A stretch of DNA of 63,293 nucleotides, counting the filler, from Octopus bimaculoides (Eukaryota): assembly GCF_001194135.2 (NCBI RefSeq). It is 4 parts of 4 records of this genome, joined end to end, with 100 filler letters (N's around TTAATTAATTAA, not from the genome) between each part and the next. Parts side by side here need not be neighbours in the genome. Positions count along the whole stretch, not along the records: positions 1 to 21,539 come from NC_068986.1; positions 21,640 to 34,141 come from NW_026383088.1; positions 34,242 to 48,865 come from NC_068983.1; positions 48,966 to 63,293 come from NC_068981.1. The stretch is one strand, 5' to 3'. Positions within the stretch are counted from its first letter, which is position 1. The number at the start of each line of letters is the position of its first letter. A program made the position numbers and the translations under genes. The notes under the pieces were generated by a model, which was given only the letters and a program-made list of their open reading frames with translations, did not search any database and was not told where the DNA came from. This document shows positions 280-59,506 of the stretch, in pieces.

Positions 280-480
280 CAAAAAAGACAAAGTAGAAAA
301 TGCTAAAATTCTTTTATAAGAACATTACAGAACCGGTTTCGATCCTTGAGATCTTTTCAACAGTAAATATGAATAATAGATTTTTGAAAAATAATTGAAA
401 ATTTAAATTTTGGTAAATTTAAAAGAAAAGTATTTTTAAAGACATATTTGTATAGTATTCAGGTAACAGCAGCATTTTTC
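280..480 (-). mobile_element. Short dispersed repeat abutting (TA)n and carrying a hammerhead-like motif (possible Penelope-like terminal repeat remnant)
   Basis: Begins immediately after (TA)n at ~255-278 and contains the motif at 325-366. Right boundary is uncertain and the family assignment is inference. Confidence 0.3.
325..366 (-). ncRNA. Type-I hammerhead ribozyme-like motif, U3-A8 core variant
   Basis: Minus strand reads TTACTG | TTGAAAA | GATC-tcaag-GATC | GAA | ACCGGT | T | CTGTAA. Stem I pairs 5/6 bp, core U3U4G5A6A7A8A9, 4-bp stem II, palindromic stem III, cleavage triplet GUU. Confidence 0.45.
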
Positions 481-550
481 TTGTTTCTGCCTGTCTCTGT
501 TTCACTTTTTAACTCTTGTGGGTTCGAAGAAGGACTGCTTCTTCGAACCA

Positions 551-707
551 CACAAGGCATGAAATTTTTTTGGGAAGGAGCTATTGGACGACACCAATCC
601 AGTACTTACTTTATCGAACTCGAAATGATGAAAATCAAAGTCTGCCTCGGTAGAATTTGATCTCAGAACGTAAAGCCGAAAGTATTTTGTCCAGCGAGCT
701 AACGATT
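551..707 (-). mobile_element. tRNA-derived SINE, family A (degenerate)
   Basis: Reverse complement of the family-A copy at 5861-6065 (aatcgttagc...ttctgag-tcaaattc...ctttg-ttttcatc...aagtact). Confidence 0.75.
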
Positions 708-944
708 ATTTCCGTTCAGCGACTTTCTTTGAATTTGACGTAATAATAAAAAACTAAATATATTTAAAGTTGATATTTTATTACAAGAAGTCTCTTAAAA
801 TTAATTTGAACAAGGTTGAAAGTAAATTGGTACCAAATGATTAAATAGAAATGTGTTTTGCTTTTCTCAGTATTGCAAATATAGCAACATTTTGAACTTC
901 ACGTGTATCTTAGAGATAATTAAATTATAGCATGATGCTCCTTC

Positions 945-1544
945 CATTCTAGAAATTAAATGACTAATTGAGGATAATTTCATGATATTGACTTTGACAA
1001 ATGCATATTTATTAATTTCTCGATGTTGGCGAAATTTAATAGTTTAATTGGTGGGCTGTTATTAAAATCAAATTAAAAAATAACATACACTAGAAATAAT
1101 ATTCAGAATGAAATTTTATTCATAGAAATGGTTAGAAAAAGGTAAAGTTGATACACACACATACATATGTATATATATGCATATATATACATATGCATAA
1201 GTATATATATATATATATATATATATATAAATATATATGCGTGTATGTGTGTGTGTGCATATATATATATATATATATATATATATATATATNNNNNNNN
1301 NNCATTCTAGAAATTAAATGACTAATTGAGGATAATTTCATGATATTGACTTTGACAAATGCATATTTATTAATTTCTCGATGTTGGCGAAATTTAATAG
1401 TTTAATTGGTGGGCTGTTATTAAAATCAAATTAAAAAATAACATACACTAGAAATAATATTCAGAATGAAATTTTATTCATAGAAATGGTTAGAAAAAGG
1501 TAAAGTTGATACACACACATACATATGTATATATATGCATATAT
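945..1544. other. Exact ~242-bp direct duplication across a 10-N gap (probable assembly artefact)
   Basis: 945-1186 is identical to 1303-1544 (offset 358), and the second copy starts at the first base after the gap at 1293-1302. Confidence 0.85.
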
Positions 1545-2216
1545 GGGCACAGGACACCATGGAGCATAAACAACATGAAATACAAAATACGAAAGCATAG
1601 AATACGAACTTTTTTTGCGAACAACGTAAGAAACAAAGGGAAAACAAGACAAGCAACACGAAAAAACGACCCTTCATCAATTGTTTGCTGTTTTTCTACT
1701 TCGATTTCGAGCATTTAACAACAAGATACGTTTTCGACATAAAAGTTGCTCCCGCAAAGCAAATTAAATAAAATTTCGGATTTTGTGGAGTGTCAAAGTT
1801 GGTAACAGAAGCAAGACAGTGAAAAGAGACAGGAAGGGCTGCTAAGTTAGTGAGCGCGGAAAAACAAGCTCTGACAGGAGACAGACAAGAATGCGTCCAA
1901 TCTCCGTGGTTGATCAGAGAGTAAGAAGAAGGAAATTCAAGTTAGCAAAAGAAAGATGGTCGACGGTCATGTGCGAGCAATGAGAGAAGAAAGGCGGAAG
2001 GGTGAGCGAGAGAGAGAAGCGACAGACAGATAGAGAATGGCGAAGGCGAGGGGAAAAGAAATGATGAGAGAGAAAAACAAAAGGGAGAGAAGAGGAGATA
2101 AAGTGAATAGAGAAAGGAAGAGAAAGGAAACGAAAGAGGGGAGGGAAAAGACAGAAAGAGATAGGAAGAGAGAGGAAACGAAAGAGGGGAGGAAAAAGAC
2201 AGAAAGAGATAGGAAG
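1545..2216 (-). repeat. Dispersed repeat abutting (AT)n, with purine-rich tract and 48-bp tandem duplication
   Basis: The terminus gggcacaggacacc at 1545 resembles the reverse complement of cgtcctgtaccc at ~166-177. GGAAACGAAAGAGGGGAGG-AAAAGACAGAAAGAGATAGGAAG is duplicated at 2126 and 2174. Confidence 0.35.
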
Positions 2217-2662
2217 TGTCGCATCAATATTATTAAGATAAAACTTACTTGGAAATTCAACACCACGCATCCATTTCCAAATAAACAACCTGAGGTTTGT
2301 TTATTTCCCATCACTGTTTTGAGCTACTATTTATGCATTTGTGAAAATAGAGCGGCCTACGAGCGCAAATCAGCCAATAGTATTGACCGATTCATTATAA
2401 AGCTACGACTTTCTGCCAGCTCAGGGTTACCACTCTTTGGTAACTCCACTGAAAAAGTTATAAAGAGTCTTGGGGTGCAATACATAATTGCGTATTTATA
2501 CTTTTGCAGTAAAAGAGAATTTTTCTCTAAGGGAACCTGCACTAGAATTGTCATTAGAAGTTAAATTATGCCACAAACATAACTGAAGTAAGCTAAAATA
2601 ATTTGCTATATAAATAAGTATATGAAAACTTGGAAATTAGAAAAGCTATTTGACCAAGATAG

Positions 2663-2715
2663 CTTTTCCAGGGATCGAACCCATAAAAGCATGATTGCGA
2701 GGTGAATTTCTTAAC
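2663..2715 (-). mobile_element. tRNA-like SINE head fragment
   Basis: Minus strand gtcggttaagaaattcacctcgcaatcatg...GGTTCGATCCC carries a B-box and a degenerate A-box. Confidence 0.45.
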
Positions 2716-57237: not shown

Positions 57238-57525
57238 CAGGTGTTGTGGCTGTGTGGTAAGAAGTTTATTTTCCAACCACATGGCTCTGGGTTCAGTCCC
57301 ACTCTGTGGTATGTTGGGCAAGTGTCTTCTACTATAGCCCCAAGTTCACCAAAGCCTTGTGAGTGGATTTGATAGACAGAAACTGAAAGAAGCCCATCAT
57401 AGATAGATATGTGTGTGTGCATGTGTGAGTATGTGTGTGTCCCACCACCCCCACTTAACAGCCGGTGTTGGTGTGTTTATGTACCTGTCACTTAGCGGTT
57501 CAGCAAAAAGAAACCAATAGACTAA
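57238..57525 (+). mobile_element. Family-B SINE (CpG-decayed)
   Basis: gtggctgtgtggtaag...ggttcagtcccac...ttgggcaagtgtcttctactatagcc...cttagcggttcagcaaaaag. Confidence 0.9.
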
Positions 57526-57639
57526 GTCTCTACCATGATTTTTAAGAAATATGGTGGAAAACTAGCCCAGGAATGTAGGGACACTACTCCCTGAGACCTC
57601 TTTTGGAGCCCTCCTACCTGATCTTACTGTTGTTATAAA

Positions 57640-57726
57640 AAACATTTGCCTGAGGTGCCACTCAGTGGTATTGAAACTGAAACCCCATGGTTGAGAAGCA
57701 AGTTTCTTAACATAGCCATGCCTACA
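57640..57726 (-). mobile_element. Family-B SINE head fragment
   Basis: acatttgcctgaggtgccactcagtgg..ttgaaac...ccatggttgagaagcaag. Confidence 0.75.
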
Positions 57727-57848
57727 TCTATAATTTGTAATTTCCTAAAACAAAGACTCATAAAATGTTTTCTTTAGAAAACTGAATTTCTGGGCAACTG
57801 TATAGAGCAGTTCTTCATGTTTATATTTTATCGGAACAAATATTTAGA

Positions 57849-58113
57849 TTGGCATGTAAAAAACACCATTTGAGCGTGGCCGTTGCCTGTACCACCGGAC
57901 TGGCCCTCGTGCCGGTGGCACGTAAAATCACCCACTACACTCGCGAAGTGGTTGGCGTTAAGAAGGGCATCCAGCTGTAGAAACTCTGCCAGATCAGATT
58001 GGAGCCTGGTGTAACCATCTGGTTCGCCAGTCCTCAGTCAAATCGTCCAACCCATGCTAGCATGGAAAGTGGGCGTTAAATGATGATGATGATGATGATG
58101 ATGATGATGATGA
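57849..58113 (+). mobile_element. Family-D repeat, young copy with (TGA)n tail
   Basis: ggtggcacgtaaaatcacccactacactcgcgaagtggttggcgttaagaagggcatccagctgtagaaactctgcc...catggaaagtgggcgttaaatgatg. Confidence 0.88.
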
Positions 58114-59287
58114 TTGTGAATCCCTAGCATGCTAAGCTAAATGCTTAGTGGCATTTCAACCCTCTTTATGTTCTTAGAATATGTGGCCCCTGGATGTCAC
58201 ATTTGTTGTGTAGTTTGTGATGATTTTAGTAGGTGGCACAGATGGTGTTATTTTTGTCTATTTATCTAAATATTATTTCCTTTTATACAGTCAAAATATT
58301 CATTTGTTATTCTTATTTGCAAATCTTTACTCTTATCTACAACAAGAAAAACTATAAAATATAGAATTAAGAAGCTCCTGTATTTTTCTCTCTCCATGGA
58401 GTTCTAAATCATATTTCTTCTGTCTGTGTCGCTGTATTTGTTAAATTCTTACATTCTTACAACCAAAACAACATTTAAACGTCTTCAATACAATTTTTCA
58501 CAATACTGAGAACACCCACCAGCTGAGAACCATTTGTTGTAAATAATTTTAGCTTATCCATGAAGAGGAGGTGACAGACAAACTCTGTCCTCATGTAATA
58601 CTTTAAACTACTTTGTATTTTATTCTCTAAGCCAAAGGGTAACACAAGAGAAACAAAACAGAGACTAAAAGTACCATCAAGTTGAAATATTCAAGGAGAT
58701 TGTTAAGTGAGACTGTAGTTTACAACTATGGAATTGTTAAAGACTGCAAGAATTATCTGGCAATTCTTTTTTGTTGTTTTAAGAATCTCATTCATACTTC
58801 GTCATCAAATTTTTTAAACTTCAGGACTTTGATGATTTGATGAGTCAATCATAATAAAGTTCTCTTTGTTACAAATCAAAATATATGTCGAGTTGTTCTT
58901 CCATAGTTTTCTCATCACCCAACTCTTCTTTGTTAATAAGGAACTAGTGAATTGTTCTGCAAGACATGAGCATACAGTTTCCATTCTCTAGCTCAGTGGT
59001 TCTCAACTGAGGTCCATATAAGGTTTTCTTGTTAAAATTTATCTGTAATTAATTTAAAAAAAAATTCTTTTACTTGTTTCAGTCATTTGACTGTGGCCAT
59101 GCTGGAGCACTGCTTTTAGTCAAACAAATTGATCCCCTCGAACTTATTCTTTGTAAGCCTAGTACTTATTCTATCGGTCTCTTTTGCCGAACTGCTATGT
59201 TACGGGGACGCAAACGCACCAGCATCGGTTGTCAAGCGATGTTGGAGGTGACAAACATATATATATATATATATATATATATATATA

Positions 59288-59506
59288 AGTTCAAAAAAAC
59301 AATAACAAAAAAACAACAAAGTGAGGACGTGATATGGATAGTGTTATTGGACGCTCAGGAAAGGAAAGAAAGAGTGTATGACGTTTCGGGCGTAGCCCTT
59401 CGTCGGAAAGATGGAAAGTTCGGAGAATGGAAGAACGGAGAAAGAGGAAAATGGTACTGATGCCCACGAGGTTACATTGTGAAAAGACCGGAAGAGGAGG
59501 TGGTGA
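59288..59506 (-). mobile_element. ~219-bp hammerhead-bearing insert nested in the SINE's (TA)n
   Basis: Bounded by (TA)n (59257-59287) and tacatatata (59507-). Confidence 0.65.
59380..59406 (-). ncRNA. Minimal type-I hammerhead ribozyme-like motif (U4C variant)
   Basis: CCGACGA a | GGGC-tac-GCCC | GAA | ACGT | C. Perfect GC stem II, 4-nt palindrome stem III, GUC triplet; stem I is weak. Confidence 0.5.

Follow-up and report, generated by a model that had tools for sequence, protein, structure and literature searches.

Introduction

The minimal hammerhead ribozymes of Penelope-like elements (PLEs) have been described as beginning with a U-rich flank and the core CUGANGA, to which a single base is added; stem II, GAAA and a palindrome come next, and stem I is short. 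They stand mostly solo and show low activity as dimers (PMC4209133, Cervera and de la Pena 2014). The same paper describes a PLE family whose core carries U3-A8, with ~1,300 matches in S. mansoni, and natural U3-A8 hammerheads have also been reported by Perreault (2011, PMC3088659). In the Hydra clade of PLEs, 26 of the 27 listed elements insert in (TA)n, among them one from Octopus bimaculoides, Hydra-1_Obim, which carries a bulged G. The hammerheads of this clade are placed close to the 3' end; stem II is often flanked by additional bases on either side, and helix III is near-palindromic (Craig et al. 2021, PMC8557442). The association of a hammerhead with (TA)n targeting is thus already published for PLEs (PMC8557442), as is U3-A8 for their hammerheads (PMC4209133). 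An optional 3' tail and 5' inversions are described as further PLE traits (PMC8557442; PMC11167929). In vitro, the protein of the PLE called PAc nicks DNA and initiates reverse transcription from sites within the element RNA, and RNA that has not been cut serves as its main substrate (PMC11167929). As context only, PLEs of O. vulgaris amount to 6.83% in 190 families (PMC13282606). Here, we analyse a stretch of O. bimaculoides DNA (assembly GCF_001194135.2; 63,293 nucleotides in four joined parts, hereafter the window) that holds five hammerhead motifs, one of which, motif 3, belongs to a high-copy repeat with the core pair G3-C8.

We consider it probable that the five motifs derive from five unrelated PLE families, or from short non-coding elements descended from these, and represent their 3' ends as remnants of pseudo-long terminal repeats (pseudo-LTRs). 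In this view, a PLE reverse transcriptase (RT)/GIY-YIG endonuclease encoded elsewhere likely inserted them into (TA)n, and motif 3 represents a many-copy G3-C8 family that is a predicted weak cutter. Four of the motifs are ordinary or decayed PLE-type hammerheads; motif 3 has a clean G3-C8 core in a high-copy animal repeat.

Results

Five hammerhead motifs exceed the random expectation

The motifs and their immediate setting are as follows.

325..366, minus strand: motif 1, type-I hammerhead; core UUGAAAA (U3-A8) at 360-354; stem II of 4 bp; palindrome ACCGGU; H17 is U331.
254..324, minus strand: 3' tail of the motif-1 element; U-rich at 324-278, then (TA)n at 277-254.
27343..27382, minus strand: motif 2, hammerhead-like; stem II of 4 bp; palindrome ACUCGAGU; stem I of 3 bp.
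29022..29072, plus strand: motif 3, complete type-I hammerhead; G3 (29029) with C8 (29034); bulged G after A9; stem II of 5 bp; palindrome AAUAUU; H17 is U29065; stem I of 7 bp.
29010..29213, plus strand: motif-3 repeat, a high-copy repeat of ~205 nt between the (TA)n tracts 28987-29008 and 29214-29233.
49122..49207, plus strand: motif 4, canonical core CUGAAGA; extended stem II of 8 bp; 10-nt palindrome; H17 is A49200; stem I of 7 bp.
59380..59406, minus strand: motif 5, minimal hammerhead; core CCGACGA (U4C); bulged A; stem II of 4 bp; palindrome ACGU.

The sequence-only reading had placed five motifs at these positions, and all of them are there. The window is AT-rich, consists of ~10% N and carries many microsatellites and short repeats. 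A relaxed type-I descriptor, which leaves positions 3 and 8 open, allows C as well as U at position 4, and requires GAAA, a palindrome, H, stem I and at least 4 Watson-Crick pairs in stem II, recovers motifs 1-5 in it and nothing else. In 150 local dinucleotide shuffles it matches 0.19 motifs on average and never more than 2 (0 of 150 reached 5), a contrast that is somewhat inflated because the descriptor was composed after the motifs were known. Under a strict descriptor (Watson-Crick 3-8 pair, U4 and a stem I of at least 5 pairs) motifs 1, 3 and 4 are retained, and none of the 150 shuffles yields a single match.

The common hammerhead order attributed to the five motifs stands in so far as the relaxed descriptor finds them all; it does not extend to every core, as motif 2 reads AUGACGA and motif 5 has U4C with a stem I of one pair. 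Positions 3-8 read, from motif 1 to motif 5, U-A, A/G, G-C, C-G and C-G. The reported U-A of motif 1 and G-C of motif 3 are therefore right, and the reported C-G in three motifs is not, motif 2 being A3/G8. A core of the form CUGANGA...GAAA...UH with a paired 3-8 is found in its canonical state in motif 4 and through a compensated swap in motifs 1 and 3; an intact core is absent from motif 2 (A3/G8, or an inserted A) and from motif 5. Helices I and II are predicted to form in motifs 2, 3 and 4 (pair probabilities mostly >0.9), stem II alone in motif 5, and neither stem in motif 1 as a monomer (pair probabilities at most 0.09).

Stems and flanks had been called otherwise unrelated, and indeed none of the 10 pairwise local alignments between the five element bodies exceeds all 200 shuffles (the best is matched by 6 of 200). 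Since the bodies are unrelated, the differences at positions 3 and 8 compare separate families and do not amount to the covariation that had been read into them, which would require an alignment. For the same reason we do not retain the notion of a single five-part system: the five elements are independent repeats.

Four of the five motifs have a (TA)4 or longer tract no more than 150 nt 3' of the predicted cut (at 54, 149, 78 and 94 nt); in motif 2 the nearest one lies 247 nt past the cut. By this measure the earlier statement of a TA-rich tract 5-150 nt away holds for all motifs but motif 2. Chance adjacency to microsatellites had been anticipated, and 12% of random sites do have (TA)4 or longer inside 150 nt; four of five exceeds this figure (binomial p ~0.001, with a 150-nt threshold set post hoc). 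All five hammerheads stand ~90-280 nt upstream of a (TA)n end, and the view that they are PLE-type type-I hammerheads of unrelated families oriented toward (TA)n is upheld. The short interspersed elements (SINEs) of the window also adjoin (TA)n, and adjacency to (TA)n is thus not specific to hammerhead elements.

G3-C8 is the consensus of a high-copy repeat

Of the 24 sequencing runs listed, 18 contain at least half of the words of 29009-29213, under three organism labels; 12 runs may be the source of the window DNA itself. To sample the family, contigs of four runs were aligned to 28990-29300 at 80% likeness, with 29206-29300 masked as repeat; relatives below 80% identity fall outside this sample. 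The four runs gave 9,608, 7,983, 2,536 and 569 matching contigs, whose depth is limited to about 29010-29205. Summed depth over the core reaches 1.1 million in run X6, compared with 23-45 for single long contigs. Allowing for an up to 31-fold overcounting of overlapping contigs, and bearing in mind that depth is not copy number, this suggests a family of about a thousand copies or more. The pattern of motif 3 has 0 matches in viral contigs. Twelve matches in metagenome contigs were rejected as chance matches in prokaryotic genes, none of them extending into the hammerhead.

Variants were listed when they reached 4% (40 of the 42 rows are listed, and the other two are tallied as A>T and T>C in run X17). 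No G>C or C>G change of at least 4% occurs anywhere in the repeat in any of the four runs, and no variant row falls on 29029 or 29034. As no other letter reaches 4% at these two positions, G3-C8 is the family consensus of motif 3. With U3-A8 in motif 1, it bears out the expectation of variant cores beyond CUGANGA. Twelve variant rows lie within the hammerhead, eight of which are CpG decay; the others affect the bulged G, one base of loop II and, in stem I, the rare G29067T and A29068G. The last is the main stem variant (29-41%) and turns a U-A pair of stem I into U-G.

Loose contig ends of the family cluster, among the rows listed (there are 682 more), before 29010 and 29021 and behind 29157/29158. 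The ends behind 29157/29158 come from at least 45, 47 and 22 contigs in three runs and have a TA-like consensus in X6; other contigs continue ~50 nt further, to at least 29202-29205, so that the family has two 3' ends. A perfect 7-bp hairpin at 29187-29203, in this optional tail, could mark the region where reverse transcription starts. A second 5' form before 29021 is fairly consistent (47, 57 and 9 contigs in three runs) and points to another subfamily or to a parent element of greater length. Joints linking 29010-29019 to the opposite strand make up 6 of the 15 listed (of 50), with 1-2 contigs each. The elements had been called ribozyme-terminated, which these data contradict: no copy has lost any of the ribozyme's 5' half, and in DNA runs the loose ends listed for the motif-3 family lie at 29010 and 29021 and not at the cut. 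Two apparent signs of cleavage were likewise rejected. A contig of run X17 (depth 1168) starts at ~29066-29068, by the predicted cut; a branch of the 31-mer graph at the 29096 variant explains this start. The rise in depth 3' of the cut tracks local variability.

These ends also bear on whether the motif-3 repeat might be a TA-flanked miniature DNA transposon in which the hammerhead fold is incidental. TA does stand on both sides, and the loose ends before 29010 finish in GAGAT, the reverse complement of the 3' terminus, in two of four runs. Yet the agreement of these ends is just 0.42-0.54, many copies end at 29157/29158, there is the second 5' form before 29021, and the shuffle test makes a complete hammerhead by chance very unlikely. 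We regard this explanation as most improbable.

The joints matter for another explanation, in which the motif-3 family (and perhaps others) would be a non-LTR retrozyme: a unit of ~200 nt in tandem arrays, whose circular RNAs, cut by dimeric hammerheads, are reverse-transcribed, the window holding monomers. The size of the repeat is within the retrozyme range and retrozyme monomers are common. Four runs guessed to be RNA contain 0.89 of the motif-3 words, but their label is a guess and contigs cannot reveal ends or circles. Against this explanation, the 15 joints listed (of 50) include no tail-to-head joint, with 29206-29300 masked and outside the alignment, and no tandem copy of the repeat occurs in the window, where it is solo only. 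We hold a retrozyme origin to be improbable; a 2026 preprint (Li et al.) presents retrozymes as PLE derivatives, so that it would in any case overlap with a PLE origin.

The remaining PLE-type motifs

Motif 1 forms five of six pairs in stem I, with a U-U mismatch, and has a weak match to the Rfam model Hammerhead_HH9 (17.2 bits, E 0.03, for a gathering score of 52). An imperfect palindrome of 43 nt (88%) lies at 515-556, ~150 nt upstream of this motif. In motif 2, the core (27378-27372, minus strand) reads AUGACGA and puts A3 opposite G8, with a C one base further upstream; a C3-G8 pair is possible only with an A inserted between C3 and U4, and the motif is probably a decayed copy. Motif 4 has one additional A flanking stem II on either side, and is followed by AATAAA at 49209-49214 and by (TA)n at 49278. 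The stem I of motif 5 is decayed, with one contiguous pair and a pairing probability of 0, and its U4C change is of a kind that reduces hammerhead activity (Perreault 2011, PMC3088659); its tail extends to (TA)n at 59286-59257.

Other features of the window

At least three SINE-like families, 70-92% alike and often adjoining (TA)n, are found in the window, and they look to be of octopus type.

59506-59678, 14730-14894, 10237-10409, 57246-57410, 43244-43396 and 21740-21871: one SINE-like family.
59677-59835 and 602-705: a SINE-like family.
59066-59248 and 9907-10087: a SINE-like family.

Pfam was searched with the 300 longest of 437 stop-free frames, and its sole notable matches are Tc1/mariner-type remnants, with a transposase remnant at 31537-32244, minus strand (DDE_3, E 8.8e-5, and weak HTH matches). 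The regions 21087-21404 and 22462-22938, both on the plus strand, are presumably also Tc1/mariner-type transposase remnants. The fragments at 16737-17102, minus strand, and 18219-18512, plus strand, presumably resemble the reverse transcriptase of RTE-type long interspersed elements; neither has a Pfam match, and no homologue was found for the former. An inverted repeat of 154 nt (60872-61025 and 61938-62091, 90% complementary, 912 nt apart) is a possible miniature DNA transposon. Two features concern the assembly. An exact duplicate of 156 nt (945-1100 and 1303-1458), whose second copy begins directly after an N gap, is probably an assembly overlap, and the TTAATTAATTAA island at 48910-48921 within an N gap, with similar letters at other gap edges, is probably a scaffolding artefact. 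An Rfam scan of the whole window gave, among the matches listed (150 of 198), only microsatellite-driven noise of miRNA type.

Discussion

A probable PLE origin and what weighs on it

All five motifs show a hammerhead of PLE layout near the 3' end of an element, and the motif-3 family shows the optional 3' tail and the 5' inversions that characterise PLEs. No PLE open reading frame was seen among the frames searched in the window, which shows no partial-tandem pseudo-LTRs either, and it is from these traits that we infer PLE membership; the motif-3 repeat resembles a PLE 3' end in its behaviour and is likely a PLE in the strict sense. Each of the five may be non-autonomous in the true sense or a copy of an autonomous element that has lost its 5' part.

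Several observations weigh against this origin. The sequence-only reading had seen no PLE RT or GIY-YIG frame, and the Pfam search agrees: neither domain is matched in the frames searched. The frames across motifs 3 and 5 have no protein homologue (for motif 5, among longer proteins only). An apparent C-terminus of a Neptune endonuclease upstream of motif 5 was equalled in 123 of 1000 shuffles, which is not significant. No motif passes the gathering score of the Rfam hammerhead models and four of the five have no match at all. At ~50 nt, the tail of the motif-3 element exceeds the 30-40 bp given for PLEs, and the AAUAUU dimer helix of motif 3 is very weak (-0.2 kcal/mol). G12 of motif 3 is lost through CpG decay in 2.7-6.8% of the depth. 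The family is young and most of its non-CpG sites are equally invariant, so that the invariance of positions 3 and 8 reflects a master copy and is no proof of current selection. Finally, family sampling covers motif 3 alone among the five. As to the Rfam result, a poor fit of minimal PLE hammerheads to such models is expected. One reading frame of the motif-3 element is open over its entire length (29010-29213, plus strand), again with no protein homologue. Three matches in a representative library were rejected, being to repetitive proteins at 26-37% identity.

The following mechanism would fit a PLE origin. A PLE RT/GIY-YIG protein supplied from elsewhere would nick AT-rich DNA, and reverse transcription would be primed at one of two internal sites, leaving copies with or without the ~50-nt tail. 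An early stop or an inverted 5' piece would be usual, so that mostly fragments running from hammerhead to tail would persist. The ribozyme would then be internal to the copies and not their terminus, and cutting would need a tandem transcript or the help of a protein: through the palindromic helix III, two copies in a tandem transcript could pair as an active dimer, probably with such help. Solo genomic copies would be mostly passive and decaying, as the CpG loss of motif 3 and the damaged motifs 2 and 5 would illustrate. In motif 3, G3-C8 would retain the Watson-Crick pair that positions the 2'-OH of nucleotide 8. Weak cleavage is predicted for this core because an engineered C3G/G8C swap partly rescues a PLE hammerhead.

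One may ask whether these ribozymes do anything at all. The PLE-derived hammerheads might be catalytically dead passengers, with G3-C8 fixed in one master copy and spread since insertion needs no cleavage. In vitro, hammerhead mutants leave PLE insertion unimpaired, with uncut RNA as the main substrate (PMC11167929), Naiad PLEs are described as thriving without hammerheads (PMC8557442), and the weakness of the motif-3 dimer helix points the same way. But motif 3 is otherwise intact in its core bases and three helices, and by our arithmetic two random core changes would land on 3 and 8 and be complementary with a chance of ~1/78 x 1/3, ~0.4%. The partial rescue of activity by C3G/G8C (PMC11167929) also argues against inertness. 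On balance we find dead passengers unlikely, if less so than the retrozyme or the transposon.

Significance of a natural G3-C8 family

The C3G/G8C swap, by which the active hammerhead fold was classically proven in the laboratory, appears here as the consensus of a repeat that has been successful in nature. Our literature search found engineered cases only and no natural G3-C8 hammerhead; it did not cover Lunse et al. 2017, which may include such variants. Most of what we describe is ordinary PLE debris, and the G3-C8 family is of modest importance. We put forward tentatively, as somewhat less likely than not, that a short PLE-derived element with a working G3-C8 hammerhead has reached about a thousand copies, or more, across three related taxa of animals. 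It would then be the first natural eukaryotic family in which the swap is fixed, one that CUGANGA descriptors cannot see, and a single genome would hold mobile elements using each of the three strong 3-8 pairings. Whole families would escape any hammerhead census in which CUGANGA is required. With the motif-3 family, amplified with a core predicted to be weaker, nature provides a way to ask whether cleavage is necessary for PLE hammerheads.

Comparison with known systems

A close likeness is to the PLE hammerheads of PMC4209133, which share with our motifs the type-I fold, the extra base after A9, G10.1-C11.1, a palindromic helix III of 4-10 nt, a mostly solo occurrence and many families per genome. 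The core and stem II of motif 5 are nearly identical to those of the Acropora Neptune hammerhead in Fig. S3 of that paper. The 56 representatives of this figure comprise 53 CUGA and 3 UUGA cores, with no GUGA or G3-C8 and no cephalopod among them. Non-LTR retrozymes, as described in PMC7229834 and the preprint of Li et al. (2026), are also short, non-coding and AT-rich, have a type-I hammerhead and occur as monomers, but they are defined by tandem arrays and circular RNA, and no array is seen here.

Hydra-clade PLEs, as presented in PMC8557442, resemble our motifs in their (TA)n preference, the hammerhead by the 3' end, the longer stem I and the bases flanking stem II; the layout of motif 4 is that of this clade, and helix III of motif 2 (ACUC/GAGU) resembles its ACUC-N-GAGU. 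They differ in that all listed cores start with CUGA and helix III usually has 1-2 central bases, and no PLE open reading frame is seen here. Visual comparison identifies none of our motifs with the hammerhead of Hydra-1_Obim. Motif 3 has a counterpart in the PAc hammerhead engineered to carry C3G/G8C (Frangieh et al. 2024, PMC11167929), which bears the same swap in a PLE and is partly active, with assistance from protein. That hammerhead is a laboratory mutant, whereas motif 3 is a natural family consensus.

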